This document shows positions 24,674-48,872 of a stretch of 64,000 bases of DNA, piece by piece. The notes beneath the pieces are model-generated. The model did no database searches, was not told where the DNA came from, and was given only the letters and a program-made list of their open reading frames with translations. The stretch spans positions 2,080,001 to 2,144,000 of the forward strand of contig CAVSHF010000003.1 of the NCBI GenBank assembly GCA_963727805.1, in the 5' to 3' direction. This stretch comes from an uncultured Nitrospiraceae bacterium (lineage in GTDB: Bacteria; Nitrospirota; Thermodesulfovibrionia; Thermodesulfovibrionales; Dissulfurispiraceae). The first letter of the stretch is position 1; the number at the start of each line of letters is the position of its first letter. The position numbers were made by a program, and so were the translations under genes.

Positions 24674-25477
24674 TCATTTCTTTTTAAAAAACCTAACCTT
24701 TTGTGCAACGGTTTTCGATTTCTTTTGTACCGTAAAAAGCTCGGTAAGAACGTCTCGCAGCGTCCCCAGATCAAGGGGAGAATTCAGCTTGCCGTCCATC
24801 GCCATCGAGACTGTCCCGGTTTCCTCCGAAACAACAATAGCGACGGAATCAGTCTCTTCGGTGATGGCGATACCAGCTCTGTGCCTTGTTCCAAACGCCT
24901 TGCTCACACCTGTGCCAAGCCTTATGGGAAGAAAGCAGCCGGCGGCAACGACCCTGTTGCCCTTGATCACCACGGCGCCGTCATGAATCGGAGAAGAGGG
25001 ATGAAAGATACTCAGGAGCAGTTCTTTCGTGACCCTCGCATCTAAAGAGGTCCCTATCTCTACGTACTCCTTCAAGCTTACCTCACGCTCGATAACGATA
25101 AGTGCTCCGATCTTCCTGTTCGCCAGCGCAATCGAAGCCTTGACTATTTCATCGAGCGATTTGAGTTCTTCTGCCGAGGTGAAGCTCTGAAGTAAAGGAG
25201 ACTGCCCCATCTGGGCGAGTGCCCTCCTAATCTCGGGTTGGAAGAGGACAATGACCGCTATAACTAGCTGGGACCAGAAACTCTGGATAAGCCAGTCGAT
25301 AGTATAGAGCTGAAGATATTTCGCGAGAAAAAGGGCGATAAGCAGAAAACTGAAGCCGACAAGCATCCTCGCGGCTATGGTCCCCTTGATAAGCACGAGC
25401 ATCCGATACAGGATTATTGAGACCAGAACGATATCGACAATATCCTGCCATCTGAGCTGTCTCAATAAATCTATCAA
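24674..25477 (-). CDS. dacA: diadenylate cyclase CdaA/DacA
   Basis: Three TM helices, FQPEIRRAL, HDGA and GTRHRA catalytic motifs, VSEETG. Confidence 0.96.
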   Translation of the reverse strand: MIDLLRQLRWQDIVDIVLVSIILYRMLVLIKGTIAARMLVGFSFLLIALFLAKYLQLYTIDWLIQSFWSQLVIAVIVLFQPEIRRALAQMGQSPLLQSFTSAEELKSLDEIVKASIALANRKIGALIVIEREVSLKEYVEIGTSLDARVTKELLLSIFHPSSPIHDGAVVIKGNRVVAAGCFLPIRLGTGVSKAFGTRHRAGIAITEETDSVAIVVSEETGTVSMAMDGKLNSPLDLGTLRDVLTELFTVQKKSKTVAQKVRFFKKK

Positions 25478-31329: not shown

Positions 31330-31679
31330 GGGGGCGAAAGGACTCGACGGGGGTTATGAGGCTTAGGTTGCATGTCGTGGCTCCATCACCACGTAAATAA
31401 GGTGGAAACAAACACAAAAGCCAACAACGAACTGGCACTTGCTGCTTAACTAAAAGCAGCACGCTCACGCAGGACTGCCTGTGGCTTGCAATGAGCGTCA
31501 TTGAGCAGGCTGCCGCCGAATGAGGGCCCTGGCCTTCGGCGGGAGACTTAGGGGATAGGATACCGGAGGGCCTGCCAATCGGCATGCCGGCATCCGAAAC
31601 GTTAAATAGGGTGGCTAAACATGTAGAAGCCTGAGAGTAGTGCTTTCGGACGCGGGTTCAATTCCCGCCGCCTCCACCA
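31330..31679 (+). ncRNA. ssrA: tmRNA; tag reading frame 31420-31449 encodes (A)ANNELALAA
   Basis: 5' GGGGGCGAAAGGACTCGAC; 3' T-arm GCGGGTTCAATTCCCGC plus CGCCTCCACCA; internal GCCAACAACGAACTGGCACTTGCTGCTTAA; 350 nt. Confidence 0.96.
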
Positions 31680-32444: not shown

Positions 32445-32786
32445 ATGAAAAGGATAGAGGCAATCGTTCGCCCCACCGGGGTAAAGCAGGTATGCAACAT
32501 TTTGGAAAAAGTAGGCTATCCTGGTGTCACGATTTCGAACGTTGAAGGTCACGGTCGCCAAAAGGGTTTCCGCGAAGTTAATGTGCGCGGCAAGATGTGT
32601 AAAATGCCTTTCCTAGAGAAAAAGAGAATAATATTGGTTGTTCAAGACAATGATGCCGACAAGATCATTAAAGCTATCCGCGAGGCAGCATGCACAGGCA
32701 AAATGGGAGATGGCAAGATATTCGTCTCGCCCATGGACGATGTAATAAGGATAAGCACAGGCGAGACCGGCGACGTTGCGGTCTAG
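32445..32786 (+). CDS. P-II family signal-transduction protein (GlnB/GlnK-like, no T-loop Tyr)
   Basis: MKRIEAIVRP, GHGRQKG, TGKMGDGKIFV, RISTGE. Confidence 0.92.
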   Translation: MKRIEAIVRPTGVKQVCNILEKVGYPGVTISNVEGHGRQKGFREVNVRGKMCKMPFLEKKRIILVVQDNDADKIIKAIREAACTGKMGDGKIFVSPMDDVIRISTGETGDVAV

Positions 32787-32897: not shown

Positions 32898-32961
32898 CTT
32901 ATATAATTTTTATGCTCGACATACATTTTTACACTATTTTTACGGTCATCTCGGCTATCCT
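32898..32961 (+). promoter_or_regulatory. putative KdpE-dependent promoter 1 (kimA-like gene)
   Basis: Half-sites CTTAT 32898, TTTAT 32909, TTTACAC 32928, TTTAC 32939; -10 TATCCT at 32956. Confidence 0.65.
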
Positions 32962-32996
32962 GAAGAAATGGATCTCAGAAATCCCTTGGAGGAGAG

Positions 32997-34811
32997 ATGT
33001 CACTTAAAAGTATTCTTATAGGCAGACCCATTGAAACGGTCAGGGAAAAACACGAACGTCTTCCGAAAACCCTCGGTCTCGCTGTCTTTGCATCGGACGC
33101 GCTGTCTTCCGTGGCATATGCAACGGAGGAAATTCTTCTAGTGCTTGTGCTTGCTGGCACTACGATGCTTCACTATTCGATGCCAATTGCGATTGGGATA
33201 GCAGCCCTCATCACCATTGTTGCAATATCATATCGGCAGACCATCCACGCATATCCATCTGGTGGAGGGTCGTACATTGTTGCTAAAGACAATCTCGGCA
33301 TAAACGCCGGCCTTGTGGCAGCAGCGGCACTATTGATCGACTACGTGCTTACCGTCGCTGTCAGTATCACTGCAGGAGTGGAGGCGATAACTTCAGCAGT
33401 TCCAGCCCTTCAAAGCCATGCAGTCCTACTGAGCATGATTTCGCTGCTAGTTCTGACTGTCGGCAATTTGAGGGGCGTCAAGGAGTCAGGCAAGATATTT
33501 GCACTGCCGACATATGTATTTATCGGGAGTATATCCGCACTGATAATCTACGGGCTTTTTAAATATTTTTATTTGCCACACCCCCCTTTGCCCGAATACA
33601 AGGCAGCCCCGGCAGGCAGCATACTGCCGATATTCCTTGTGATGAGGGCCTTTGCATCAGGATGTACTGCACTGACAGGGATAGAAGCCGTATCGAATGG
33701 AGTGAAAGCTTTCAAGAAACCGGAGGCAAGAAATGCAAGCGTTACGCTGACCTGGATGGCTGCGATCCTTGGAATCTTCTTTATAGGGATTACCTTTCTT
33801 TCAAACCACTACGGTATACTTCCCAGCGAGAACGAAACAATTCTTTCGCAACTCGCGCGCACGGTGTTTTCACATGGGGTCCTCTACTATATAGTTCAGA
33901 TATCCACATTTCTGATCCTTATCCTGGCAGCAAACACCTCGTTCGCCGATTTCCCGAGGCTCTCCTCCATAATGGCCGTGGATGGTTATATGCCGAGGCA
34001 ACTTAGCAACCGAGGTGACAAACTCGTATTTTCAAACGGCATACTACTTCTCAGCCTTTTTTCCGCAATCCTTATCATCGGCTTCGGAGGAGAGACGCAT
34101 GCTCTCATCCCACTATATGCAGTCGGCGTCTTTCTTGCCTTTACATTGTCACAGATTGGTATGGTGAAGCACTGGATCGACAAAAAAGGAAGCCATTGGC
34201 AGAAATCGGCTGTGATCAACGGCATAGGAGGGATAACAACCGCGCTTGTTCTAATCGTGATAGCGGCGACGAAATTCATGCACGGGGCATGGCTGGTCAT
34301 CATAGCTATACCGACCATTATGTATCTGACCAAGAATGTCAAGTCCCATTACATGTCCGTTGCCGCCCAGCTGTCTCTTGAAGGACACATCAAAGAAACT
34401 GAATTTACCCACCATTCTGTAATTATCCCCATATCCGGCGTGCAGAAGGCCGTGATACATGCAGTCAAATATGCCAAGGCGCTTTCCGACGACGTTGCTG
34501 CCGTATATGTATGTCTGGACCCGGAAGAGACAAAAAGGATACAAATCAAATGGCATGAATACGGTATGGACGTGCCGCTAATAGTACTCGAATCACCGTA
34601 CCGTTCTATAATGAAGCCATTCCTCGATTTCCTGAACGAACTGCACGCAAGATATAAAATGGGCGTTATTACCGTCGTGCTGCCTGAGTTTGTCCCTCAA
34701 AAATGGTGGCATCACCTGCTCCATAACCAGACCGCCATTCTTATCAAAGGGGTGCTGACTTTTAAGCGGGGGATAGTGTCGACCAGCGTGCCGTTTCACT
34801 TAAACGAGTGA
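32997..34811 (+). CDS. kimA: KimA/YdaO-like APC-family K+/H+ symporter
   Basis: SDALSSVAY, YPSGGGSY, LIDYVLTVAV, LTGIEAVSN, ANTSFADFP, cytosolic domain ending WWHHLLHNQTA. The acidic and Tyr transport residues of B. subtilis KimA appear conserved. Confidence 0.85.
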   Translation: MSLKSILIGRPIETVREKHERLPKTLGLAVFASDALSSVAYATEEILLVLVLAGTTMLHYSMPIAIGIAALITIVAISYRQTIHAYPSGGGSYIVAKDNLGINAGLVAAAALLIDYVLTVAVSITAGVEAITSAVPALQSHAVLLSMISLLVLTVGNLRGVKESGKIFALPTYVFIGSISALIIYGLFKYFYLPHPPLPEYKAAPAGSILPIFLVMRAFASGCTALTGIEAVSNGVKAFKKPEARNASVTLTWMAAILGIFFIGITFLSNHYGILPSENETILSQLARTVFSHGVLYYIVQISTFLILILAANTSFADFPRLSSIMAVDGYMPRQLSNRGDKLVFSNGILLLSLFSAILIIGFGGETHALIPLYAVGVFLAFTLSQIGMVKHWIDKKGSHWQKSAVINGIGGITTALVLIVIAATKFMHGAWLVIIAIPTIMYLTKNVKSHYMSVAAQLSLEGHIKETEFTHHSVIIPISGVQKAVIHAVKYAKALSDDVAAVYVCLDPEETKRIQIKWHEYGMDVPLIVLESPYRSIMKPFLDFLNELHARYKMGVITVVLPEFVPQKWWHHLLHNQTAILIKGVLTFKRGIVSTSVPFHLNE

Positions 34812-34885
34812 ATTCTCCAGTGGCTACCGCAAAATGCGCCACTATCCCTCGGGCGAATCAACCCGCAATTCTCAGAGGTAGGTTG

Positions 34886-35035
34886 TCAATACCAGTAGAG
34901 TAGAGAACAGGGGATAGGGCTTTTGTCACTACGCCAGTTCTCCACTCTACCGCACTGATAGAGAGCCACCTCTGCCTGCACCTCAGGAATACCTACGTTC
35001 TTTGATAGCTTCTCTACGAGTTCTGCTTTGTTCAT
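34886..35035 (-). pseudogene. truncated HU-family DNA-binding protein
   Basis: MNKAELVEKLSKNVGIPEVQAEVAL after GGAG; similarity stops after about 25 aa at an inverted repeat. Confidence 0.6.
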
Positions 35036-35119
35036 ATTCTTGTTCTCCTATAAGGTAACTGATGCCAAAAATATACCACCTATACTTTCTCATGGACGTC
35101 TATTTGAAAGTACTCGTTA

Positions 35120-35185
35120 TATACGATAATTTTATGCTACCACCCTCATTATTTACACCTATTTTATTCATTTTTTTGATACTCT
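35120..35185 (+). promoter_or_regulatory. putative KdpE-dependent promoter 2
   Basis: TATAC 35120, TTTAT 35131, TTTACAC 35152, TTTAT 35163; -10 TACTCT at 35180. Confidence 0.7.
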
Positions 35186-35201
35186 GAAAACAGGGAGGTG
35201 G

Positions 35202-35309
35202 ATGAAAATGGAAGGCTTAAAATGGATAGCTCACATTTTTATAATGGTAACCGGGTTTATCATTCTCACCGGTTTGATGTTAAAACTTGTAAAACTCTTC
35301 AACGTATAA
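35202..35309 (+). CDS. 35-aa single-TM small protein
   Basis: MKMEGLKWIAHIFIMVTGFIILTGLMLKLVKLFNV; strong GGAGGTG RBS; its TAA abuts the next ATG. Below the ORF-track cutoff. Confidence 0.65.
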   Translation: MKMEGLKWIAHIFIMVTGFIILTGLMLKLVKLFNV

Positions 35310-35843
35310 ATGACAGAAATGAATAAATGGATTAACTTACAATCTTTGCAGTCCCTTCTCAGTGGAGCTGGCGCATCGCAAGTAGCCTTTTCAGAGCACC
35401 CGCTACTTGATGTGATGGCTCTTAATGCGAAGAGTGGCCATCATTTTGTAGTAATCCCAATCGCAAATGTGGACAAGCTGTCGATGAACGCAATCCGTTA
35501 TGCAAAACTCTTTAGCGGCGAAATTGTTGCAGTCCACATACTTCTTAATCCTTCGGACAAGGACAATATCAAATACCAGTGGAAAAAGCAAAATATAGAT
35601 ATTCCGCTTGTACTCTTCGAATCGTCCAATGGCTCTCTTATTGAGCCACTTATGACATATGTCGACGGAATACGTTGTCGCCATAAGGAAAGTGTCGTCA
35701 CTATTGTGTTACCGGTACTTGTCACGCTGAAATGGTGGCACCGCTATCTGCACGACCAGACGGCACGTTTAATTGAAAGGGTAGCGCAGCGAGATGCAGG
35801 CGTGGTGACAGTACGCGTTCCGTATTTTATTTGTAAAAATTAA
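35310..35843 (+). CDS. stand-alone paralogue of the KimA cytosolic domain
   Basis: Aligns without gaps to the C-terminal ~130 aa of the protein at 32997-34811 (HHxVxIPI, YAK, PL..ES, VTxVLP, KWWHxxLHxQTA, VP). Confidence 0.8.
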   Translation: MTEMNKWINLQSLQSLLSGAGASQVAFSEHPLLDVMALNAKSGHHFVVIPIANVDKLSMNAIRYAKLFSGEIVAVHILLNPSDKDNIKYQWKKQNIDIPLVLFESSNGSLIEPLMTYVDGIRCRHKESVVTIVLPVLVTLKWWHRYLHDQTARLIERVAQRDAGVVTVRVPYFICKN

Positions 35844-35870
35844 AATGAAAAAAAGATTGTAAATGCGATG

Positions 35871-35919
35871 GGCGATTTCAGAGATGACGTGGAGTGCTTC
35901 TCTCTGAATATCAGTAAGT
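35871..35919. repeat. ~50-bp dispersed repeat, copy A
   Basis: Matches 38402-38451; 15-bp identical core TTTCAGAGATGACGT. Confidence 0.7.
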
Positions 35920-36886
35920 TTTGGATAATTCGCGGTAGAATCCATGTCAGGTCAATGCAATATGACAATAATTGTGGAGGCAACCACATATTATATTGGC
36001 ATTCTGGAGATGAGAGGTACATATGATAGCAAAGTTGTTTGAGAAGGCAATAGGAATAGAAGCTCCTTGGTATGTGCGTGATATATCATTCGACATGGCT
36101 GGCAACAAGGTCACCATCTTCGTAGATTTTACGGTCGGCAGCCGGTTTCAGCACCCGCAATTTGAAGGTCTGTATCCGGTATATGACACGACCACTCAGC
36201 GCTATCGGCATCTGAACATTTTCGAGCACAAGTGCATCCTTGAGGTCCAAGTTCCTCGTGTGCAGTTGCCTGACGACTCGGTGCGGATGATCGAGCCCTC
36301 GTGGCCAGCTTCACGCAGCGGTTCGAAGCTCTGGTGTGATGCTCTGTCGGCAGATACCCTTTCAGTCTGTGCCAGCCTAGTCAACGAGAGGCGGCATAAG
36401 ATTGGCAACGATCTGTGGTCGTATAGTCGATTTGGCGCTTGCTGAGGCCAACTTCTCCGAGGTACTTGCAGTGGCTATCGACTAAACCTGTCGGTGCAAC
36501 GGCACATATCTATGTGACCGTGGCTGCTGATGCTGGACAGTGACCAGTTACTTTTTACCGAGGGCGGGGACACTGAAGCCCTTGCAGTTTTGGCCGAAGA
36601 TCTGCGCACTCATTGCGGTAATCCTGAGGCGATTGAATCGGTCAGCATCGACATGTCGCCTGTATACATCAAAAGCGTGGATGAGCACATTCCCAATGCG
36701 GAGATCACAATCGACAAGTGTCATATAATTACCCAAGCATCAAAGGCAGTAGACAAGACTCGAAGTATTGAACAGAACCGTGATCACCTAGAGGACATCG
36801 TCTTCTGGACTCGAACGCGCCGGCAAGATCGACTTTTCGCGGATAAACCCTTTTGTGGTGCTACTAACTTATAATTCAAAAGAGCC
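35918..36886 (+). mobile_element. ISL3-family remnant (transposase pseudogene at about 36023-36874)
   Basis: RHLNIF..VPRV, AVAID*, SIDMSP, IDKCHI motifs broken by stops, frameshifts and a deletion; right end ATTCAAAAGAGCC (reverse complement GGCTCTTTTGAAT); left end approximate. Confidence 0.8.
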
Positions 36887-37057
36887 TCAAAAGGTATATG
36901 ATGGGACCGCTCATTGCATTGAGTCGCTGTGCCGTCGGGATACAATATTTTGTTCATGTTCTCTTAACAAGTGCAGCTTTGCTCGTCACTCATCAAAATG
37001 CCCCGTCCTTCGGCAGGGAATTTTGTTATAATTGAAAAAACTCTCGGGAGACTATGC

Positions 37058-38290
37058 GTGGAATTAGCGATCAGCTTTGAGATGGCGAGGCAGCTATTGC
37101 TATCTTTTGCCGTCATCTTGGCTGCAGGCACCTTTTCGGTTTTTTTGTCACAAAAGCTCAAGGTCCCGGATGTGGCGACATTCCTTCTCGCAGGCATCCT
37201 GCTCGGACCTGAGGTGTCCAGTATCTTACACATCACTGCCGAATCTGATCTGAACCAAATCATACTTATATTTGGCGCCTGTTATATCCTCTTTGATGGC
37301 GGGGCTTCGATCAAGCTGAAGGTCATGAAGCAGATCTGGATTACTCTCTTCGTGCTCGCTACAATCGGCGTTATTATCATGACGACAATCACGGGTATTG
37401 CTGCTTATTATTTGCTGGGGCTCCCTTTAATTACAGCTCTATTGCTTGGTGCTGCAATTGCGCCCACTGATCCTGCAACGATAATCCCAGTTTTCCGCCA
37501 GGTCAGAGTAAAGGAGAGAATTTCACAGGCGCTGATCAGCGAATCGGCCTTTAACGATGCAACAGGCTCCGTCCTCACTTTCGCAGTCCTTTCTGTCGCC
37601 ATGGGTTCCGCCGGCTTTTCGTTAACAGCATCCCTTTCAGATCTTTTGAAACAGTCCGTCGGGGGTATTGTCATAGGCGGTGCAATGGGATATCTCAGTG
37701 CGCTGCTAATAACCCAAGAGAAGGTCGACTTCCAGGCCAAATATGCCCTTGTAATAACGCTGATGGCCGTCATCGGTACTTATCTGGGTGCGGACGGCAT
37801 ACAGACGAGCGGGTTCATGGCGGTTTTCGTTTTTGGAATCATCCTCGGCAACAAGGAAACCTTCGGCTTGCGGATGAATGTGGAGGAGCATGAAAAACTC
37901 CAGGAATATGTCGCAAGGACAGCTGTGATAATGAGGATGTTTATATTCATCCTCCTGGGCTCGCAGGTCGATTTCAGTCTAATGAGCAAATTCCTGTTCG
38001 GCGGGGTGATCATCGTCACCATCTTCATGCTGATCGCAAGGCCGATTACCGTTTTTTTATGCGCCCTTCCGGACCGGCAAGCAAAATGGAGCAGCAAAGA
38101 AATGCTCTTTATGAGCTGGACGAGAGAGACGGGCGTCATCCCCGCGGCACTTGCAGGCTTGATGATGGGAAAGCACGTGCCCGGGGCTGAAATCATAGCT
38201 GCCGTTACATTTATCGCTATTCTTATCACTATCCTAATCCAGGCGACGACTGCGAAATGGCTGGCGGGAAAATTGGGATTGCTGGAATAA
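37058..38290 (+). CDS. CPA1/NhaP-type cation:proton antiporter
   Basis: ILFDGG, PTDPA, ESAFND, RETGVIPAAL; many TM helices; GTG 37058 after GGGAG; TGTTATAAT extended -10 at 37024. Confidence 0.9.
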   Translation: MELAISFEMARQLLLSFAVILAAGTFSVFLSQKLKVPDVATFLLAGILLGPEVSSILHITAESDLNQIILIFGACYILFDGGASIKLKVMKQIWITLFVLATIGVIIMTTITGIAAYYLLGLPLITALLLGAAIAPTDPATIIPVFRQVRVKERISQALISESAFNDATGSVLTFAVLSVAMGSAGFSLTASLSDLLKQSVGGIVIGGAMGYLSALLITQEKVDFQAKYALVITLMAVIGTYLGADGIQTSGFMAVFVFGIILGNKETFGLRMNVEEHEKLQEYVARTAVIMRMFIFILLGSQVDFSLMSKFLFGGVIIVTIFMLIARPITVFLCALPDRQAKWSSKEMLFMSWTRETGVIPAALAGLMMGKHVPGAEIIAAVTFIAILITILIQATTAKWLAGKLGLLE

Positions 38291-38401
38291 GAAGCAAAGC
38301 AGTTGTAAATTGGCGAATGTTATGATAAAGCAGCTTTTTCTGGTACGCTGGTTATTTTCACTTACACGCTTAATGACGGCGCCCAGCTCGATTGCCGATT
38401 A

Positions 38402-38451
38402 GACGGTTTCAGAGATGACGTTGAAGTGCCTCTCCCCGAATACCTGTAAGT
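38402..38451. repeat. ~50-bp dispersed repeat, copy B
   Basis: Matches 35871-35919. Confidence 0.7.
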
Positions 38452-38608
38452 CATATCTGTAAATAGGACATTTTCACTTTGGCTTGACATCGTATCTGTA
38501 AAAGTTGACATTTCACTGAAGAATCTATTCCAGGTTATTTCAATAAGACAATCATTATGTCGGTGATTACATATTGGTATTTGTGTCAAAGAACTCGGAA
38601 TATGTTTT

Positions 38609-38674
38609 TTTACGAAATATTTATATCTTGGCACCCCTTTTTTACACTAACTTTATTCGGTTTTTTGCTACTTT
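38609..38674 (+). promoter_or_regulatory. putative KdpE-dependent promoter 3 (beta-barrel gene)
   Basis: TTTAC 38609, TTTAT 38620, TTTACAC 38641, TTTAT 38652; -10 TACTTT at 38669. Confidence 0.72.
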
Positions 38675-38809
38675 ATAAGTGGCGGAGCTTCGATTGAAGC
38701 TATTTGTTTCGTAATGGGCATTGTGATGTTCGATATTTGACATGTGATACTGTGGGCATATCCTTAACAAGGACTTGAGTCCTTTGAATAGTCATAGGGG
38801 GTTTTTAAC

Positions 38810-39670
38810 ATGAAACGTTTAATAGTATTTTTGACAGCAGTCTTTGCAGTGTGTCTTATCATTAACGTATACGCCGAAGAGCAGGCGCCGGCAGTAGCGC
38901 CCGCTCCGGCAGCAACTGCGGCACCGGATGTAACCGGCAGTGTCTCATTCGCCGGATTGAACAAGTATATCTTCAGGGGCGCCGAACTGAGCGCTAGGAG
39001 TGTAGTGTTGGAGCCTTCAGTAATAATCAACTACAAGGGATTTTCTCTTAATGTATGGGGTAACATCGACACTGACCAGCATCAGACCCAGGCGTTTACT
39101 CCCGGCAAAGATGGCAGCGGCGAAGGACACAAGAGCTTCAATGAAACCGATCTTACACTTAGCTATGCCTACGCTATCGATAAACTGAGCCTTACGGGCG
39201 GCTATATTTATTATGGGACCGAATATGTTCAGCAGACCCAGGAGCTCTATGTAAGCGCAACCTATGACATGATCACGCATCCGACGATCTCGGTATACCG
39301 CGACATTGATGCCAATCCAGGCTGGTATGTCAATCTTTCATTTTCGCAGTCTCAGCCTGTGGTCAAGATGCCGAACGGTGATATGACCGTCGATCTTGGC
39401 ACATCATTCGGTTATTACAATATCAGTAGCCTTACGCCTGCCAATAAAACATACAGCGCCCTGCATGACGGCATGGTTAAAGTCGGCCTCACCATCCCCG
39501 TGGTGAAGAATGTAGTCGTGCAGCCTATAACCCAGTACTGGTTCCCATTATCTAGTAAGGCACATCATGATCAGATTGTCACCGTTGGCGACAATATTTT
39601 CAATAACAATCCGGCCGCCCACATCGACAATACATTTGTCTTCGGCGTCGGCGTGACATTGAACTTCTAA
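38810..39670 (+). CDS. outer-membrane beta-barrel, TorF/Gcw_chp-like putative porin
   Basis: Signal peptide, Ala/Pro linker, NKYIFRG, ETDLTLSY, GYIYY amphipathic strands, C-terminal VTLNF. Confidence 0.75.
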   Translation: MKRLIVFLTAVFAVCLIINVYAEEQAPAVAPAPAATAAPDVTGSVSFAGLNKYIFRGAELSARSVVLEPSVIINYKGFSLNVWGNIDTDQHQTQAFTPGKDGSGEGHKSFNETDLTLSYAYAIDKLSLTGGYIYYGTEYVQQTQELYVSATYDMITHPTISVYRDIDANPGWYVNLSFSQSQPVVKMPNGDMTVDLGTSFGYYNISSLTPANKTYSALHDGMVKVGLTIPVVKNVVVQPITQYWFPLSSKAHHDQIVTVGDNIFNNNPAAHIDNTFVFGVGVTLNF

Positions 39671-39834
39671 ATTAAGCATAAGGGGCACAATTTCAAGAGG
39701 AGAAATTAGAATGAACCTTGTAATCTGCCTTCCGACAATGTTTGTTTTGGGTATCGGCGCAGTGACACTGTGCCATCTGCAAAAAAGGGCTCTTCAGTTG
39801 TCTCAGGAGATCCCTATTAAGAAAGGTCGAAGCA

Positions 39835-40032
39835 ATGGAATCACTCGAAAATAAATTAAGGGAAATTGAGAAGGACGAAATCATTCGCGCGCTCAAAGAA
39901 TGTAATTTCGTGAGAGCTAGAGCTGCGAGAAGGCTGGGCATTACAGGAAGGATGATTGGATACAGGATAAAAAAATACGGCTTAAGGATAAAGGAAGTGG
40001 GGCCGGTCGAAGAAAGCGGCGCAGAGCAATAG
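39835..40032 (+). CDS. stand-alone Fis-type HTH protein (resembles the C-terminus of sigma54 activators)
   Basis: LREIEKDEIIRALKECNFVRARAARRLGITGRMIGYRIKKYGL. Confidence 0.75.
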   Translation: MESLENKLREIEKDEIIRALKECNFVRARAARRLGITGRMIGYRIKKYGLRIKEVGPVEESGAEQ

Positions 40033-40212
40033 AACGCCTGGAATCGCAATATATAAATTATTCCTGAAATGAATAATGCATCGACATGGATAATAAAGAT
40101 AACCGGAATTCCCCCTGTTGCGCTCATTATGTTGTGCGTAAATGCTACGCAGGTTCCGAATGGAGCTCGAATCGCCCGTGCATACGACAGATTATTATCG
40201 CTGTCCTTAATT

Positions 40213-40278
40213 TTTACACTTTTTTTATACAATATGCCTATTTTTTTACACCTATTTGATTTTCTATGGTGATAAACT
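40213..40278 (+). promoter_or_regulatory. putative KdpE-dependent promoter 4 (kdp operon)
   Basis: TTTACAC 40213, TTTATAC 40224, TTTACAC 40245, TTGAT 40256; -10 TAAACT at 40273. Resembles the E. coli kdpFABC KdpE site (TTTATA/TTTACA half-sites 11 bp apart). Confidence 0.8.
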
Positions 40279-40296
40279 TTACAAATGGAGGTGCTT

Positions 40297-40380
40297 ATGG
40301 ACCTAATCTATTTCGGAATAATTGCAGTTTTTTTCGGGCTCACCTGGCTGCTGGTACTGGCTGCCGAAAAAGTTAAGTAG
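40297..40380 (+). CDS. 27-aa hydrophobic peptide upstream of kdpF
   Basis: MDLIYFGIIAVFFGLTWLLVLAAEKVK; GGAGGTG RBS. Confidence 0.75.
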   Translation: MDLIYFGIIAVFFGLTWLLVLAAEKVK

Positions 40381-40406
40381 CAGTTTAAAGAGATGAGGAG
40401 GTTAAA

Positions 40407-40499
40407 ATGGAAACCCTTTACATTGTAAGTGGTATCATTGCCGTCAGTCTATTGGTATACCTTGTCGTTGCACTCATGAAACCGGAGATATTCTCATGA
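40407..40499 (+). CDS. kdpF: K+-transporting ATPase subunit F
   Basis: METLYIVSGIIAVSLLVYLVVALMKPEIFS (YL..AL..PE.F motif); GAGGAGG RBS; ATGA overlap with kdpA. Confidence 0.9.
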   Translation: METLYIVSGIIAVSLLVYLVVALMKPEIFS

Positions 40500-42280
40500 C
40501 AACGAACGGTATTTTACAAATAGTCTTGTATCTCGTAGTCCTTGTTGCCCTCGTCAAGCCGCTGGGTAGTTATATGGCGAAGGTATACCAGTCCGAGCCA
40601 ATATGGCTCAACCGTATCCTCGGTCCGGTCGAGAGACTCATTTACCGCATGCTTGGAACTAGGCCTGAGGACGAGATGTCCTGGAAAGGATATGCCGGAG
40701 CGGCTATTCTCTTCAAGCTCGCATTTCTCTTTCTTTTGTATGCGATTATGCGCCTCCAAGGGATACTGCCGCTGAACCCTCAGAATTTTAGCGCCATCTC
40801 TCCGGATCTCGCCTTCAACACCGCGGCCAGCTTCATCACGAATACTAACTGGCAGTCATACGGCGGCGAATCGACCATGAGCTATCTGACCCAGATGATA
40901 GGACTCAGTGTGCAGAACTTCGTCTCAGCAGCTCAGGGGATGGCAGTCCTCGTTGCGGTCATCCGTGGCTTTACTCGCCGGACCGCGGGATCGATAGGCA
41001 ATTTCTGGGTCGACCTTACTCGCTCTACGCTCTATATCCTGTTGCCGCTCAGCCTTATTATGGCTGTGCTGCTCGTCTCTCAGGGCGTCGTCCAAAACTT
41101 CAGTCCGTATAAAACTGTGCCGCTTTTGCAGACTATCAATTACGATAATCCCAAGATGGATGCTAACGGCCAACCGGTACTGACCGCGGACGGAAAGCCT
41201 GTTACAGAGCCTGCTAAGGCCACTGAACAGTCCTTGCCTCTTGGGCCGGCAGCCTCGCAGATTGCAATAAAACAGCTCGGCACCAATGGCGGCGGATTTT
41301 ACAATGTAAACTCTGCTCATCCATATGAAAACCCTACGCCGTTTTCGAATTTTCTGGAGGTGCTCGCCATCCTGCTCATTTCGGCTGCTCTTTGTTACAC
41401 CTTCGGCAAAATGGTCCTCGACAAGCGGCAGGGATGGGCTTTGCTTGCGGCGATGCTCGTCATATTCATCCCCCTCCTGATCATTTGCTATTCGGCTGAA
41501 CAGGCAGGTAATCCTCTCCTTACTGCAATAGGAGTAGATCCGTCAGGCGGCAACATGGAGGGCAAGGAACTGCGCTTCGGTGTCGCTAACTCGGCAATTT
41601 GGGCCACGGCGACTACTGCTGCATCGAACGGCTCGGTAAATGCCATGCACGACTCGTTCAGTCCGATTGGTGGGCTGGTGCCGATGGTTTTAATGCAGTT
41701 GGGCGAGATCATTTTCGGCGGTGTAGGTTCAGGCCTTTACGGTATGATCGCATTTGCCATCATGGCGGTCTTCATAGCAGGGCTCATGGTCGGACGGACA
41801 CCCGAGTACTTGGGCAAAAAGATTGAGGCTTTCGAGGTGAAAATGGCTGCGATCGTCATCCTAATACCTTGCTGCTTTGCCCTGCTCGGCACGGCGATTG
41901 CGTCGGTCACTAGTGCGGGCGTGGCGGGCATTTCGAACCCCGGACCTCACGGCTTCTCGCAGATGCTCTACGCCTTTTCATCGATGGCTAACAATAACGG
42001 CAGCGCCTTCGCAGGTCTCAGTGCAAACACGGTGTTTTACAACACACTCGGAGGCATTGTGATGCTCTTCAGCAGGTTCTGGACCATGATTCCGATGCTT
42101 GCCATCGCAGGCTCGCTGGCCGCAAAGAAAAATGTTCCGCCGAGTGCAGGCACGCTGCCGACTCACACTCCTCTGTTTGTTGTCATGCTTGTGGGAGTGA
42201 TAATCATTGTCGCGGCGCTAACTTTCTTCCCTGCCCTGGGGCTGGGGCCGATAGCAGAGCATCTGATGCTTTATAAGTAA
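40496..42280 (+). CDS. kdpA: K+-transporting ATPase subunit A
   Basis: TNTNWQSY, KQLGTNGGG, SNGSVN, GRTPEYLGKK, NNGSAFAG. Confidence 0.98.
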   Translation: MTTNGILQIVLYLVVLVALVKPLGSYMAKVYQSEPIWLNRILGPVERLIYRMLGTRPEDEMSWKGYAGAAILFKLAFLFLLYAIMRLQGILPLNPQNFSAISPDLAFNTAASFITNTNWQSYGGESTMSYLTQMIGLSVQNFVSAAQGMAVLVAVIRGFTRRTAGSIGNFWVDLTRSTLYILLPLSLIMAVLLVSQGVVQNFSPYKTVPLLQTINYDNPKMDANGQPVLTADGKPVTEPAKATEQSLPLGPAASQIAIKQLGTNGGGFYNVNSAHPYENPTPFSNFLEVLAILLISAALCYTFGKMVLDKRQGWALLAAMLVIFIPLLIICYSAEQAGNPLLTAIGVDPSGGNMEGKELRFGVANSAIWATATTAASNGSVNAMHDSFSPIGGLVPMVLMQLGEIIFGGVGSGLYGMIAFAIMAVFIAGLMVGRTPEYLGKKIEAFEVKMAAIVILIPCCFALLGTAIASVTSAGVAGISNPGPHGFSQMLYAFSSMANNNGSAFAGLSANTVFYNTLGGIVMLFSRFWTMIPMLAIAGSLAAKKNVPPSAGTLPTHTPLFVVMLVGVIIIVAALTFFPALGLGPIAEHLMLYK

Positions 42281-42295
42281 CAGGAGGATCAATCC

Positions 42296-44368
42296 ATGAC
42301 TAATAAAAAGAAAAAGACCACACTATTCGATCCACGGATCATCCGGCACGCACTGATCGATTCGCTGATAAAGCTGAATCCGAGGAATCAAATCCGCAAC
42401 CCGGTGATGTTCGTGGTCGAAATCGGAAGTATCCTAACGACGCTTCTCTTTGTCCGTGCTCTCTTCGTGCCCGGCAGCGAGTCGCCGTGGTTCATACTTC
42501 ATATCTCAATCTGGCTCTGGGCTACGGTCCTTTTCGCCAATTTCGCAGAATCCGTAGCTGAAGGCAGGGGTAAGGCCCAGGCGGATGCGCTCCGTGGCTC
42601 GCGAAAAGACGTCCAGGCAAAGAAGCTGGCGCAGCCCGACAAAGATGCAAAGGTTACCGTTGTCACTTCTGCTCAATTGAGGAAGGATGATTACATACTT
42701 GTGGAAGCGGGAGACATCATACCTGGAGATGGTGAAATAGTAGTAGGAGTCGCCTCAGTCAATGAGAGCGCCATAACGGGCGAAAGCGCGCCGGTTATAC
42801 GTGAAAGCGGTGGAGACAGGAGCGCCGTGACCGGCGGGACGATGGTTCTTTCGGATTGGATCGTTGTGAGGATCACCGCAAACCCGGGAGAAACATTTCT
42901 CGACCGCATGATATCTATGGTGGAGGGCGCAAAGCGGCAGAAGACGCCTAATGAGATCGCACTCAACATACTGCTGGCCGGGTTGACTATTATCTTCCTG
43001 TTCGCTACCGCAACTTTGTTACCGTTTTCGATCTTCAGCGTCACTGCGGCAGGCCAAGGGAACCCTGTCACGATAGTCGTGCTGGTGTCGCTTCTTGTCT
43101 GCCTGATACCGACTACAATCGGGGGTCTTCTATCAGCAATCGGCATTGCGGGCATGGACCGCCTTATACAGGCCAACGTCATCGCCATGTCGGGCCGTGC
43201 AGTCGAAGCAGCAGGTGATGTGGACGTGCTCCTCCTGGACAAGACTGGCACTATAACACTCGGCAACCGGCAGGCCACAGCTTTCATCACAGCTTCCGGA
43301 GTCAATGCACAATCACTTGCAGATGCTGCACAGCTTTCATCTTTGCCGGACGAAACTCCGGAAGGACGCAGCATCGTCATACTGGCCAAGGAGAAATACG
43401 GGCTTCGTGAGCGGGACATTCATGCGCTCGGGGCAAAATTCATACCATTTTCAGCCCACACCAGGATGAGCGGTGTAGATATGGACGGCCGCGAAGTAAG
43501 GAAGGGCGCCCCGGATGCTGTCGAAAATTATGTCAAAAGCAAGGGAGGAATCTTTCCTCCTGATATCAAAGTGATCGTCGAAGAAGTGGCACGCACGGGC
43601 GCAACTCCGCTGGTTGTTGCTGAGGGCAATAAGGTGCTCGGCGTTATCCGTCTGGGCGATATCGTAAAGGGAGGCATTAAGGAGCGGTTTGCTGAACTCA
43701 GGACGATGGGGATAACAACAGTCATGATTACCGGCGACAATCCGCTTACAGCTGCAGCGATTGCAGCGGAAGCTGGGGTCGACGACTTTCTGGCTCAGGC
43801 CACACCGGAGACTAAACTTCAACTGATTCGGAAACACCAGACAGGCGGGAAATTGGTAGCAATGACCGGGGACGGTACAAATGACGCCCCTGCGCTGGCA
43901 CAGGCTGATGTCGCAGTCGCAATGAACACAGGCACGCAGGCGGCTAAGGAGGCCGGCAATATGGTCGACCTTGACTCTAATCCGACGAAGCTGATCGAGA
44001 TAGTCGAGATCGGAAAGCAGTTATTAATGACGCGCGGCACACTGACGACATTCAGCATCGCAAATGATGTTGCGAAATACTTCGCGATCCTGCCTGCTGC
44101 CTTCATCGTCATTTATCCACAGCTCGCCGCGCTCAACATTATGGGACTTTCGACACCCCATAGCGCCATATTGTCGGCGGTCATATTCAACGCGCTGATA
44201 ATCATTGCCCTGATCCCTCTGGCTCTGCGCGGTGTCTCGTATCGGCCACTCGGCGCTGCAGTCGTATTGCGCAACAATCTCCTTATTTACGGACTGGGAG
44301 GCCTGATCGTGCCGTTTATAGGCATCAAGCTGATCGATATGATAATAACCTTTTTGAATCTGGCGTGA
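42296..44368 (+). CDS. kdpB: K+-transporting ATPase subunit B
   Basis: [34 protein letters not shown]. Confidence 0.98.
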
Positions 44369-44372
44369 GGTG

Positions 44373-44957
44373 ATGGCTATGTTGAAAATGATAAGACCAG
44401 TAATAGTCTCGCTCTTTATATTTACGATATTGACGGGGGTCCTATACCCCCTCGCGGTGACCGGCATCGCGCAGCTGATCTTTCCGGATCAGGCGAACGG
44501 GAGCCTCATACTCAAAGACAGCAAGCCTGTCGGCTCCTCTCTCATCGGGCAGCCGTTCGATGATCCGAAATACTTCTGGGGACGGCTATCGGCTACATCA
44601 CCATTTCCGTATAACTCTGCGTCTTCGTCCGGGTCCAACTTAGCTGAAACGAATTCCGACCTTGTGAAAAATGTGCAGGGACGGATAGATGCTTTGAAGG
44701 CCGCAGACCCGGAGACGGGGAAACAGGTTCCCGTCGATTTGGCGACCGCGTCCGGAAGCGGCCTGGATCCTCACATTAGCCCCGCTGCAGCCGAATTTCA
44801 GATAAAGCGGGTAGCGAAAGCCCGTGCATTGGATGAAGCAAAGGTCCGAGCCATCGTTGCGCAATATTCCGAGGGCCGGCAGCTAGGAATACTTGGCGAT
44901 CCGACGGTAAACGTCCTTAAGCTGAATTTGGCACTGGATGAACTTGGCCGCAAATGA
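44373..44957 (+). CDS. kdpC: K+-transporting ATPase subunit C
   Basis: [38 protein letters not shown]. Confidence 0.96.
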
Positions 44958-44994
44958 AATATGAAATGACGATTAAAATAAGTGGGGAGGAACT

Positions 44995-45384
44995 GTGAGA
45001 TTAAAATTATTGAGGGTATGCGCGGGAGTGTTCCTTTTGTTCGCAATGAGCATTCCTTCAACTGGTCACGCTGTTTCCTACCAGCCCGCTTTTCGTCTTA
45101 CCCCGGATAGCGGATCAGTGGTTGTGAAGGGCGGCAGCGTATATCTGTTTCATAGCGGAACACGCGACATCACAGACACGGTCCATTGCGGGGATATCTT
45201 TATCGTCTATCGAATAAGCCCTTCGTGCATGATGCATGAAGTCGGCAAAGTCCGACTTGTCAACTTTCACGGAGATACATATATGGAAGCCGAGGTCATC
45301 GAGGGTGAGCTCAAGGCAGGTGATATAGCAAAGAAAGGAAATATATCGTGCCTCATCGTATCTACGGAACCATGCATCCGATAG
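44995..45384 (+). CDS. hypothetical exported protein between kdpC and kdpD
   Basis: GTG start after GGAGGA; signal peptide ending GHA; beta-rich mature domain with 4 Cys. Confidence 0.7.
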   Translation: MRLKLLRVCAGVFLLFAMSIPSTGHAVSYQPAFRLTPDSGSVVVKGGSVYLFHSGTRDITDTVHCGDIFIVYRISPSCMMHEVGKVRLVNFHGDTYMEAEVIEGELKAGDIAKKGNISCLIVSTEPCIR

Positions 45385-45435
45385 AATGGCTACCGAGTAA
45401 TTATATGTTAGAGGATAAGTTAGAAAGGAATAGGA

Positions 45436-48141
45436 ATGGTGGAAGAACGACGACCTGATCCTGAACTATTGCTCAATCAGATGCGCAGGGAGACCGCGCG
45501 CAGCCGCGAAGGACAGCTGAAGATTTTCTTCGGCTCGGCCCCTGGTGTCGGCAAGACCTACGCTATGCTCGAAGCCGCACGCAAGAAGCTCTCCGCAGGT
45601 GTCGACGTCGTAGTCGGACTTGCCGAGACGCATGGGCGCAAAGAAACGGAAGCCTTGCTTGCCGGTTTGCCAATACTACCACGCAGGAGCATCGAATACC
45701 GCGGCGCCGTCCTGAAGGAATTTGATATAGACGCAGCCCTTGCCCGAAACCCCTCAATCATCCTTGTCGATGAGCTTGCCCATTCAAATGCGGAAGGATC
45801 TCGACATAAGAAACGCTGGCAGGATATATACGAACTGCTTGGCGCCGGGATTACGGTCTATACGACAATGAATGTACAGCACCTTGAAAGTCTGAATGAC
45901 GTAGTCACCCAGATAACCGGCATCAACGTGCGGGAAACGGTCCCCGATTTTCTTCTCGACAGGGCTGATGAGATAGAGCTTATCGACCTTCCCCCGGAAG
46001 ATCTTCTGCAGAGGCTGGCCGAGGGAAAGGTATACGTGGCAGAACTCGCTGCACAAGCCCGTAAAAACTTCTTCCGGAAGGGCAACCTCCTTGCTCTGCG
46101 TGAGCTTGCATTGCGCCGTACCGCAGAACAGGTTGATGTGCAGATGCAGGACTACCGGCTGGATAAGGGCGTAAAAGATGTCTGGCCCGCTGCCGAGCGA
46201 ATTCTCGTGTGCGTCGGTCCTAGTCCTTTCGCTGTCCGCCTAATTCGCGCAGCCAAGCGAATGGCTGCCGGGCTTCGTGCCGATTGGATCGCCGTCAATG
46301 TCGAAGCGCCCGGAAAGGTGCGCCCTTCTGAGAGCGACATCAAAGGACTTACCGAAAACATGCGTCTTGCTGAAAGCCTCGGCGCCGAGACGGTCGTGCT
46401 TTCCGGTCACAAGGCGAGCGATGAGATTCTGACTTATGCACGCAGCCGCAATGTCACCAAAATCATCATAGGAAAACCGACCCATCCCCGCTGGAAAGAT
46501 ACGTTGTTCGGATCGATGCTTGACGAAATCGTCCGGGGGAGCGGGGACATTGACGTTTACGTCATTTCAGGAGATGTAGCTGCACCCGCACTCGCACGAC
46601 AGAAACCCACCCGTCTCAGGACACCGGCTAAAGAGTGGGGGATCAGTATTTTGGTCATAGCACTTTGCACTGGCATCGGGTTTCTCATGCGCCAGGATTT
46701 CACCCTTGTCGACATAGCGATGGGCTTCATACTGGGAGTCGTCTTTATTGCAAGCCGCACCGGTAATGCTCCCTCCCTGCTCGCCTCTCTTTTGAGCGTC
46801 GCTGCATTCGACTTCTTCTTTGTCCCTCCATACTATAGTTTCGTGGTACATGACGTAAAATATTTAGTAACGTTTGTCGTGATGTTCGTTGTCGCTTTTG
46901 TAATCAGCAAGCTTACATTGCGCATCCGCGAACAGGCCGATGCTGCAAGGATACGGGAGAGGAGCACGGCGGCCCTCTATCGCTTGAGCCGGGAATTGGT
47001 CTATGAGCGAGGGATAAACCGATTGAGCGACATCGCGACGAAACACGTCGGAGAGATGTTTTCCGGGAAAGCGGCCATTCTTATGCCTGATGACCAGGAC
47101 AGGCTGAGTGTTTCTGCAGCCGGACCTCAGACACTGATTCTTGATGAACGTGAATTGAGCGTTGCACAATGGGCATTCGGTCACCGCCAGAAGGTTGGCA
47201 GGGGGACTGATACCCTTCCCGGTGCGAAGGGTCTATATATACCTTTGGCTGCATCATCAAGGACGGTCGGCGTCATAGGTATCATATCAGATGACGCTAC
47301 GGGACCATTAGACCCGGAGCAGATTCATGTCCTCGAGAATTTCGCCCACCAGATTGCCATGGCGTTCGAAAGGGCCCTGCTTGCCGAAGAGGCACAGCAA
47401 GCGGTTCTGAAGGCAGAAACCGAAAGCCTGCGCAATACGCTGATAAGTTCGCTCTCGCATGATCTCCGCACGCCGTTAGCCGCGATCACTGGCTCATCAA
47501 CGACATTGCTTCAACAGGATGATGTCCTTGACAGGCATAACCGCCGTGAACTCATCTTCACTATTATCGAAGAAGCTGAGCACCTCAATCGGACAGTTCG
47601 CAATGTACTCGATATGACCCGTATCGAATCGGGCGCCATCACTGTAAAGAAAGAATGGCTGCCAATCGAGGAAATCGTCGGGGCCGTGCTGAACCGTCTC
47701 GCGGAAAAGCTAAGAGACCATCCGTTGGCGACCAGTATTCCAAAAGACCTCCCAATGGCTTCCTTTGATCCGCTCCTTATAGAGCAGGTGCTTATGAATC
47801 TGCTCGAAAATGCTGCAAGATATACCCCGGCAGGGACGGCTATCGAACTTTCGGCTGCCGTCAAAGACCATGAACTCCTAGTCGAGCTTGCCGACCATGG
47901 TCCGGGGATTACTCCGGGAGACGAGGAGAGGATATTCGATAAGTTCGTCCGCGGGCCAGCAGCAGTAGGTGGAATCGGTCTCGGACTGACAATATGCCGG
48001 GCGATCATCAATGCCCATGGCGGCCGAATATGGGCTGAAAACGGGAAGGGCGGCGGCGTAGTCTTCCGCTTTACGCTTCCGATATCGAAGCATCCCCCGG
48101 TCGTGGAGACCGATGAGGAGACAGTGCGGTTCATATCATGA
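45436..48141 (+). CDS. kdpD: sensor histidine kinase KdpD
   Basis: PGVGKTYAML, LVDELAH, USP domain, 4 TM helices, GAF, SHDLRTPL, NLLENA, GIGLGL. Confidence 0.97.
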   Translation: MVEERRPDPELLLNQMRRETARSREGQLKIFFGSAPGVGKTYAMLEAARKKLSAGVDVVVGLAETHGRKETEALLAGLPILPRRSIEYRGAVLKEFDIDAALARNPSIILVDELAHSNAEGSRHKKRWQDIYELLGAGITVYTTMNVQHLESLNDVVTQITGINVRETVPDFLLDRADEIELIDLPPEDLLQRLAEGKVYVAELAAQARKNFFRKGNLLALRELALRRTAEQVDVQMQDYRLDKGVKDVWPAAERILVCVGPSPFAVRLIRAAKRMAAGLRADWIAVNVEAPGKVRPSESDIKGLTENMRLAESLGAETVVLSGHKASDEILTYARSRNVTKIIIGKPTHPRWKDTLFGSMLDEIVRGSGDIDVYVISGDVAAPALARQKPTRLRTPAKEWGISILVIALCTGIGFLMRQDFTLVDIAMGFILGVVFIASRTGNAPSLLASLLSVAAFDFFFVPPYYSFVVHDVKYLVTFVVMFVVAFVISKLTLRIREQADAARIRERSTAALYRLSRELVYERGINRLSDIATKHVGEMFSGKAAILMPDDQDRLSVSAAGPQTLILDERELSVAQWAFGHRQKVGRGTDTLPGAKGLYIPLAASSRTVGVIGIISDDATGPLDPEQIHVLENFAHQIAMAFERALLAEEAQQAVLKAETESLRNTLISSLSHDLRTPLAAITGSSTTLLQQDDVLDRHNRRELIFTIIEEAEHLNRTVRNVLDMTRIESGAITVKKEWLPIEEIVGAVLNRLAEKLRDHPLATSIPKDLPMASFDPLLIEQVLMNLLENAARYTPAGTAIELSAAVKDHELLVELADHGPGITPGDEERIFDKFVRGPAAVGGIGLGLTICRAIINAHGGRIWAENGKGGGVVFRFTLPISKHPPVVETDEETVRFIS

Positions 48142-48872
48142 CAAACGACAAAGGGCTTATTCTACTTATCGAAGACGAACCCCAGATGCGGCGGTTCCTG
48201 AAGGTGACGCTTCAGAGCCACGGCTATGTCCTAATAGAAACGTCGACGGGACAGGAGGGTCTTACCCAGGCTACAACACGCAATCCCGATGTGATCCTAC
48301 TCGACCTCGGGCTGCCAGATCTCGACGGACTGGAAGTCTTGGGTAGATTACGCGAATGGTCGCATATCCCTGTGATCATCCTTTCTGCCAGAGAACAGGA
48401 GCAAGACAAGATCATGGCGCTCGATGCAGGCGCAAACGACTACCTAACCAAACCGTTCAGCGCTGGAGAGCTATTGGCCAGGATCAGGGTTGCGTTGCGC
48501 AATCAAGGTTTGCAAGCAGGTCTGTCAGAGCCGGTCTTCGTTCTGGATACGCTGCGCGTCGATCTTGCCAAACGCCGCGTGTTCCTGAAAGAATCAGAAA
48601 TTCATCTCACGCCTATCGAATACAAGCTACTTGCATATCTCGTAAAAAACGCCGGCAAAGTAATCATGCATAAGCAGCTGCTAAAAGAGGTATGGGGCCC
48701 GGCTTACGCCAACCAGGCGCACTACGTACGGATCTATATGGGCATGCTCAGGCATAAACTCGAGGAGGACCCCGCGCGCCCCCGCTTTTTCATCAACGAA
48801 CCGGGAGTTGGATACCGCCTGAGGTTAGAGGTGGAAGAGACAGTGAAAGGAAATGAAACCGCACCTCAATGA
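48138..48872 (+). CDS. kdpE: response regulator KdpE (OmpR family)
   Basis: IEDE, LLDLGLPDLDG, DYLTKPF, HLTPIEY, EPGVGYR. Confidence 0.96.
   Translation: MTNDKGLILLIEDEPQMRRFLKVTLQSHGYVLIETSTGQEGLTQATTRNPDVILLDLGLPDLDGLEVLGRLREWSHIPVIILSAREQEQDKIMALDAGANDYLTKPFSAGELLARIRVALRNQGLQAGLSEPVFVLDTLRVDLAKRRVFLKESEIHLTPIEYKLLAYLVKNAGKVIMHKQLLKEVWGPAYANQAHYVRIYMGMLRHKLEEDPARPRFFINEPGVGYRLRLEVEETVKGNETAPQ

Follow-up and report, generated by a model that had tools for sequence, protein, structure and literature searches.

In a window of 64,000 nucleotides, the whole stretch of DNA analysed here, from an uncultured Nitrospiraceae bacterium (assembly GCA_963727805.1, contig CAVSHF010000003.1, positions 2,080,001 to 2,144,000 of the forward strand), four intergenic regions in and beside a kdp potassium transport locus carry the same doubled box, namely two pairs of half-sites followed by a -10-like hexamer, and these four sites, designated A to D, are a real regulatory feature. 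Based on the analysis in this work, we propose that they are conserved two-box promoters, which are likely switched on by phosphorylated KdpE at low K+, with KdpE dimers predicted both upstream of and over the -35 position. All four are on the plus strand. Site A (32898..32961), with half-sites at 32898, 32909, 32928 and 32939 spaced 11/19/11 and TATCCT at 32956, lies 5′ of kimA; site B (35120..35185; 11/21/11; TACTCT at 35180) lies 5′ of a peptide and a free KimA domain; site C (38609..38674; 11/21/11; TACTTT at 38669) lies 5′ of a barrel gene; and site D (40213..40278; 11/21/11; TAAACT at 40273) is the kdp operon promoter. The coordinates and spacings of the initial annotation, which was made from the letters alone, were found again in the sequence, together with the third half-site TTTACAC that it described as invariant and the TAnnnT hexamer that begins 17 bp past the start of the last half-site at every site; its wording of the half-sites as TTTA(C/T)-like is exact for 13 of the 16 and has to be relaxed for A-1 (CTTAT), B-1 (TATAC) and D-4 (TTGAT). 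No match to the sigma-70 consensus was found at sites A-D, and the box stands at a fixed distance from the -10 (+17 in the window sites) without a normal -35, as in PhoB/PhoP-type promoters.

The architecture is confined to very few places in the genome under study (G000, 3,893,517 bases; C3 and C5 denote its contigs, and Gnnn and Lnnn the genomes and loci of relatives). A relaxed pattern derived from sites A-D matches only four times on both strands, in comparison with 61 occurrences of a single 11-bp pair and 267 of TTTACAC. Because this test is circular, leave-one-out scans of the whole genome were made with a two-block position weight matrix (PWM), and the held-out site ranked fourth (B, C and D) or fifth (A) in all four settings, with scores of 31.9-44.4 bits, whereas no unrelated place exceeded 22.6 (scan with the -10, genome background). 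Only one other place was ever ranked above a held-out site; it is a fifth site, located outside the window at G000:C5:936812, and precedes the remnant of a second kdp locus. With a PWM built from 52 Nitrospirota sites, the training of which included B, C, D and the fifth site and left out A, the five sites of the genome score 43.9-54.1 bits (46.0 for site A) and the next place 17.2. The PWM scans of the genome, a check that the initial annotation had proposed, give five sites, all at K+ loci. Pairwise identity among the five is 69-88% in the half-sites, 22-52% in the spacers and 20-54% in the flanks. The annotation had also reckoned with an architecture common in AT-rich DNA throughout the genome; the leave-one-out scans single out these sites instead, and, run with both genome and 35%-GC backgrounds, they rule out chance occurrence in such DNA.

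The doubling of the box is real at the window sites, and it is no special feature of this locus, as sequence comparison makes the 11/21/11 doubled box the general layout of kdp promoters, E. coli included. E. coli KdpE binds TTTATA/TTTACA repeats spaced by 11 bp, in the region from about -72 to -50 (PMC3264566), and paired TTTAYA-like repeats with this spacing are found at about these positions in the window sites, assuming that the hexamer is the -10. Upstream of kdpF, E. coli K-12 carries TTTATAC-11 bp-TTTACAC-21 bp-TTTGCGA-11 bp-TTTGCAG-16 bp-TACCCT, so that the kdpFABC promoter (PMC3264566) shares with the sites reported here not only the TTTATA/TTTACA-type half-sites 11 bp apart but also a second pair, 32 bp downstream of the first box and over the -35 position. 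The two differ in that a single site has been described in E. coli, whereas both boxes are near-consensus here and occur at five sites, and in the distance of the -10 from the last half-site, 17 bp here and 16 bp in E. coli. E. coli and its kin have a degenerate second pair (TTTGCG, TTTGCA), which scores 14-16 bits versus 24.5 for the first. A cross-phylum sample comprised 80 metagenome kdpA loci together with 10 named plasmid records. In the 59 of them whose best box in the upstream 1.5 kb reaches 12 bits or more, a second box at +32 has a mean score of -4.8, as compared with about -33 at most non-overlapping offsets, -20 to -25 at neighbouring or phase-related offsets and -32 at -32. With a PWM of the distal box only and near-duplicates removed, the best offset out of the 102 is +32 in 27 of 55 foreign loci; among the 44 whose KdpA is less than 62% identical to that of the window, this holds for 22. 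A TA lies at +16 in 18 of the 27 and at +17 in one. Since the foreign loci are related, a binomial p-value for +32 overstates. Among the named plasmid records, the double box is present in those of Ralstonia, Variovorax, Mycetohabitans, Duffyella and a Klebsiella plasmid, and Nitrospira-side loci mostly have the same 21-bp layout with lower scores.

That sites A-D are KdpE-type promoters is supported by the distribution of the box, which tracks the kdp operons having KdpE, and we infer that the sites bind KdpE and respond to K+. Relatives were sampled in 54 stretches around kdpA or kdpD, wherein the PWM from the four window sites scores at least 25 bits 5′ of 28 of the 30 canonical-clade kdpA loci; L126 was left out of this count for its short upstream stretch, though a 29.4-bit site is present, and L101 and L170 have an identical site sequence. 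L132 (KdpA 50%, adjacent kdpE) scores 51.0 bits. In contrast, kdpA copies in operons with a kinase-less KdpD have at most 8.1 bits upstream in six of six cases, giving a co-occurrence of site and KdpE across genomes of 28/30 versus 0/6, and divergent kdpA-like genes have at most 16.5 bits within 1.6 kb (n=5). A KdpE-grade match was found in none of the eight box-less-type genomes searched, the best match to NF007820 there being 176 bits versus about 290 in G000 and G404; as these genomes are 89-98% complete, KdpE is to be called not found there rather than absent. The KdpE-type character that the initial annotation had given to the promoters is thus borne out, and its attribution to the local KdpE stands in part, because the genome holds two kdpDE pairs, with KdpE paralogues 79% identical, and the local protein is only one of two candidate regulators. 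The KdpE matches to NF007820 score 291-294, under the cut-off of 325 yet far above other regulators, and of the DNA-contact residues, the local KdpE keeps the equivalents of E. coli R193 and R200 (residues after PMC3264566). The second pair belongs to the remnant on C5 (L019, G000:C5:936812-941365), which has a full double box in front and lacks kdpF, kdpA and kdpB; its leader peptide continues in frame into KdpC residues 36-192, and intact paralogues of a 129-aa open reading frame (ORF), kdpD (75%) and kdpE (79%) follow downstream.

Based on this layout, activation could proceed as follows. Low K+ would raise phosphorylated KdpE, and either KdpE paralogue could act. If the hexamer is the -10 and starts at -12, the half-sites would start at about -72, -61, -40 and -29, with one KdpE dimer at about -72 to -55 and another at about -40 to -23. 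Like PhoP, the proximal dimer would take the place of the contact that sigma region 4 makes at the -35; the distal dimer, located three helical turns further upstream, would contribute affinity together with a contact, either through bending or with the C-terminal domain of the polymerase alpha subunit. In M. tuberculosis, PhoP binds as tandem dimers with the proximal one over the -35 (PMC11825685), and PhoP/PhoB-type promoters share with the present sites the tandem boxes of the OmpR/PhoB family, of which the proximal overlaps the -35; they differ in that here one repeat position is skipped, leaving 32 bp between the boxes, and in that the tandem dimers of PhoP are established (PMC11825685), while a KdpE dimer at the proximal box is predicted. 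The four units would be induced together and would supply KdpFABC along with two accessory ORFs, a channel of the outer membrane that is related to amtB-linked barrels and plausibly serves K+ entry, a free KimA domain that plausibly binds cyclic di-AMP (c-di-AMP) and, in this lineage only, kimA, which is riboswitch-controlled in relatives. On comparison with the relatives, the regulon appears real but uneven, in that the free domain and the barrel are boxed there and kimA is not.

The free KimA domain was claimed as a regulon member by the initial annotation, and the conservation of its box agrees with this. Site B occurs at the same position in G003, G004, G010 and G462, and the free-domain gene, often located directly before kdpF, is boxed in G003, G004, G010, G381, G404, G462 (two copies) and L170 and has no box in G013, G417, G399 and L171. 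The gene (35310..35843, plus strand, 177 aa; PDB 6s3k, E 4e-15) follows a hydrophobic peptide ORF of 35 aa (35202..35309, plus strand). Both are present as annotated; they are, however, one frame split by a single TAA, here and in G003, and in G010 a CAA at the TAA position yields a single ORF of 204 codons. A recent breakage of kimA as the source of the domain is not supported, because it is only 39% identical to the corresponding domain of the neighbouring KimA and stands alone in several genera. The domain keeps P50 and H148-D-Q-T151 of the c-di-AMP pocket (residues from PMC10284832). Set against Pro479, His579, Asn580, Gln581 and Ser582, the P, H and Q are kept and Asn and Ser are replaced by Asp and Thr; Arg337 lies in the missing membrane part, and Trp592 and Arg587 are not kept. 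The domain is plausibly a c-di-AMP receptor, as predicted from these residues, and the genome encodes a diadenylate cyclase, whose domain (PF02457, above cut-off) lies in the window at 24785-25141 on the minus strand.

The predicted outer-membrane barrel (38810..39670, plus strand, 286 aa) likewise keeps the place given to it in the regulon, as site C is retained in G004 and G010, where the barrel has its own box. It is a distant relative of Gcw_chp (PF09694), a family of putative porins on which almost no literature was found; the window protein itself has no match to the Pfam model and is related through homologues only, 47 of 85 of which match at E<=0.01. In Ralstonia, the first gene of the kdp operon is a full Gcw_chp member, with a double box in front. 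Barrel matches occur in 74 of 301 genomes of the phylum; among the 29 best loci in relatives, amtB is next in 27 and the barrel follows kdpC in two, and the closest non-kdp relative of the window barrel (77%) stands before amtB. NH4+ and K+ are close in size, and a role of the barrel in K+ entry is therefore plausible. In a quick tree (midpoint root, no clade test), which does not fix the direction of recruitment, the window barrel groups with the kdp-linked copies of G003 and G004 and the amtB-linked copy of G007 (Shimodaira-Hasegawa-like approximate likelihood ratio test, SH-aLRT, 100) and other kdp-linked barrels fall elsewhere, which suggests repeated association. The sequence has a signal-like N-terminus and a C-terminal Phe, and its Atlas matches are outer-membrane clusters; the single-sequence structure model reached a predicted local distance difference test (pLDDT) value of 30, and a profile search of the PDB gave no credible relative. 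We presume that TorF or TIGR02001 is the name of the barrel family, and a nlmA-glnK-amtB precedent is reportedly known in Herbaspirillum. The genome has two boxless barrel paralogues (G000:C3:1911612-1912520 and C5:1136750-1137712), one of them before amtB and a P-II gene, and the other before a transporter gene of APC type, downstream of which lies a further Amt-like ORF.

Several observations weigh against reading the sites as two-box KdpE promoters of one K+ regulon. With respect to the layout, the E. coli footprint spans -72 to -50, covering the distal box only with 2:1 binding (PMC3264566), the best second box is not at +32 in 28 of the 55 foreign loci, and no +32 second box was found in five of the ten named plasmid records (Rhizobium, Azospirillum, Burkholderia, Enterococcus and Acinetobacter). 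With respect to the regulator, T215 of E. coli KdpE is N in the local protein, the canonical kdp loci L097 and L122 score only 9.9 and 17.9 bits (27.8 for the latter with the larger PWM), L123 (KdpA 59%, adjacent kdpE) only 10.5, and the relatives in the co-occurrence counts are kin and not independent. With respect to the targets, the fold and the solute (K+) of the barrel are predictions, site A has 19 bp instead of 21 between its boxes, and the box of kimA finds no counterpart at the orthologues: the 30 best kimA loci of 51 matching genomes include 29 outside G000, and in the 500 bp upstream of these 29 orthologues there is no box (the best score being 4.5 bits, and the upstream region being short at three), 14 of the 29 being in genomes that have a KdpD domain, and the nearest orthologue (G004, broken) has the distal box alone plus a riboswitch.

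The symporter gene is thus ruled out as a conserved regulon member, and the comparison does not extend the assignment of kimA to KdpE by the initial annotation beyond this lineage, as 24 of the 29 orthologues, all without a box, bear the c-di-AMP riboswitch RF00379 upstream. Local rewiring is the reading that suits site A best; with its 19-bp spacing, this site is also the weakest of the four cases. In the window, and thus before kimA, no c-di-AMP riboswitch matched at the gathering threshold, so that the same target gene that is under riboswitch control in B. subtilis has a box and no riboswitch here. Judged by its residues, the product of this gene (32997..34811, plus strand, 604 aa, a K+/H+ symporter of the KUP/APC family; phmmer to PDB 6s3k, E 1e-159) is a true KimA: in addition to full-length homology, the K+-site residues D34, Y41, D115, T227, E230 and Y374 and the c-di-AMP contacts R334 and H576-N-Q-T579 match B. 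subtilis KimA (residues from PMC10284832 and bioRxiv 10.1101/2023.07.05.547876, mapped on the 6s3k alignment). The locus would show kimA moving between riboswitch and two-component control. In G028, a site of 28 bits accompanies a broken kimA. The sole above-cut-off c-di-AMP riboswitch of the genome (G000:C3:2166474-2168490) stands before a 605-codon ORF, presumably Kup-like by its start.

Three other explanations were weighed. The downstream repeats could be a polymerase-contact or DNA-bending element kept by descent, with only the upstream box binding KdpE; the distal-only footprint of E. coli, the degenerate and lower-scoring second pair of E. coli and its kin, and the fact that TTTACA is one change from TTGACA speak for this, but half-sites 3 and 4 end 22 bp and 11 bp before the -10, so that neither is at normal -35 distance, the proximal box scores as high as or above the distal one in the window sites, and it keeps its 11-bp direct-repeat form over 52 sites, the spacers of which carry little information. 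We regard this explanation as unlikely. It is more doubtful still that only site D and its C5 paralogue work and that A, B and C are duplicated copies of the kdp promoter, some of them idle. The region has been rearranged, as seen in the ISL3 remnant, the split frame of peptide and free domain and the deleted second kdp operon; a short hydrophobic peptide ORF follows both B and D; site A has off-standard spacing and no orthologous counterpart; and the barrel leader holds a separate TTGACA-16-TATCCT match at 38737, though this is not kept in relatives. However, half-sites conserved at 69-88% between spacers of 22-52% are the pattern of selection, and both B and C have been retained in further genera and families.

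A reading of the repeats by another regulator of the OmpR/PhoB family appears very improbable, for although many OmpR-family proteins bind 11-bp direct repeats and PhoR-KdpE cross-talk has been reported in E. coli (PMC7657598), all five sites of the genome are at kdp or K+ loci and the box follows KdpE presence across the genomes examined. Metatranscriptomes of 18 wetland runs contained 5-11% of the words, and the contigs from four of them, which come from relatives and are mostly 88-95% alike, show neither starts nor levels and were not used.

Conserved two-box activation by KdpE, the reading preferred here, allows a wider proposal that we make tentatively and hold to be somewhat doubtful as a whole: KdpE promoters from E. 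coli to Nitrospirota might be two-box promoters with an overlooked second dimer over the -35 driving activation, to which this lineage might have added two components, namely a K+ channel of the outer membrane, taken over from ammonium uptake, and a separate c-di-AMP-binding domain through which KdpDE signalling would be tied to the control of K+ uptake by c-di-AMP. KdpDE belongs to the textbook two-component systems, and its E. coli promoter is treated in the literature consulted as one site upstream of the -35; a conserved second box, if true, would change the activation model. It is testable at once in E. coli K-12, and we value it above the local regulon, itself of moderate interest. From its repeats, the second half of the E. 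coli promoter is likely an overlooked regulator site, which may have been noticed before in the original footprint work. In the parts of the literature consulted, which did not cover that work, no description was found of a second KdpE box, a kdp-linked Gcw_chp barrel or a free KimA domain. E. coli KdpE is reported to have a single or near-single target (PMC5934670, PMC7657598), and Caulobacter KdpE a different motif and further targets (bioRxiv 10.1101/2023.07.05.547876); KdpE regulons extending past kdp are known in S. aureus and enterohaemorrhagic E. coli, and regulon expansion as such is therefore not new (further background: PMC3610689, PMC2700814, PMC10294691). Additionally, the locus names three candidates for K+-starvation proteins, the Gcw_chp-related barrel, the free KimA regulatory domain and a 129-aa protein.

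The cluster runs in the order transfer-messenger RNA (tmRNA) gene, P-II gene, site A, kimA, site B, peptide and free KimA domain, ISL3 remnant, CPA1 antiporter, site C, barrel, site D, leader peptide, kdpFABC, 129-aa ORF and kdpDE. On the plus strand, site D is followed by a hydrophobic leader peptide of 27 aa conserved in relatives (40297..40380), kdpF (40407..40499; TIGR02115 and PF09604 above cut-off), kdpA (40496-42280), kdpB (42296-44368) and kdpC (44370-44957), the 129-aa ORF (44995..45384), and kdpD with a full kinase (45436-48141) and kdpE (48138-48872), the kdpABC and kdpDE genes being assigned by family matches. The 129-aa ORF, conserved in many relatives between kdpC and kdpD, belongs to no known family; its cluster matches are unnamed Nitrospirota clusters with a weak FlgT_C lead (11% of one cluster, score 0.87), and it carries its own box in G381. 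The products of kdpZ and kdpY of Clostridium acetobutylicum are hydrophobic peptides. The kdpZYABCXDE operon of that species (PMC5401905) resembles the present one in having additional small genes 5′ of kdpA and another between kdpC and kdpD, a likeness of gene arrangement only. Among the metagenome loci, L262, L265, L270, L281 and L293 have ORFs of 149-191 codons directly 5′ of kdpA, without Pfam match and several alike by eye.

Within the range drawn by the initial annotation, the P-II gene, the ISL3 remnant and the cation/proton antiporter carry no box themselves. Upstream of the antiporter (36971..38290, plus strand; PF00999, top NCBIfam matches potassium/proton antiporter, under cut-off), no site was found in the leave-one-out or 52-site PWM scans. 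The broken ISL3 transposase remnant (36023..36874, plus strand; PF14690, PF01610) is outside the regulon. Similar segments at 35870-35990 and 38400-38590 follow the free-domain gene and the antiporter, respectively, and a single copy in G010 links the free-domain gene directly to site C, from which the remnant and the antiporter look inserted. The P-II family gene (32445-32786), just 5′ of site A, encodes a protein 42-45% identical to three other P-II proteins of the genome and under the GlnK/GlnB cut-offs. On the upstream side, the cluster is adjoined by the tmRNA gene (31330-31679, tag ANNELALAA), this end being a possible insertion site, and the GC content is 44-46% at 32-36 kb versus 48.6% for the window.

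Further kdp operons were seen among the relatives. A second type in the class (L099, L125, L128, L129, L130 and L131) encodes a KdpD of some 645 aa, with no kdpE next to it, and a c-di-AMP riboswitch lies upstream at three of the seven kinase-less kdp loci scanned (L125, L128 and L129). The alternative of riboswitch or KdpDE described for kdp operons, as in the B. thuringiensis kdpFABC riboswitch (PMC6488665), is repeated in this class, whereas the same source reports such kinase-less operons as restricted to Bacillales. Divergent kdp-like operons (L029, L030, L031/L168, L032, L171 and L301) have a KdpA 35-37% identical and, in L168 and L171, a KdpC of about 340 aa; several adjoin a barrel and a free KimA domain. 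More double boxes occur in relatives (L116:19008, L121:18701, L103:995, L103:9789 and L027:13256): in G039 and G027, 3′ of kdpE and followed by an unassigned ORF whose start is signal-like; in G388, 5′ of a Kup-like ORF and divergent from kdpF; and in G028, 5′ of kdpD.

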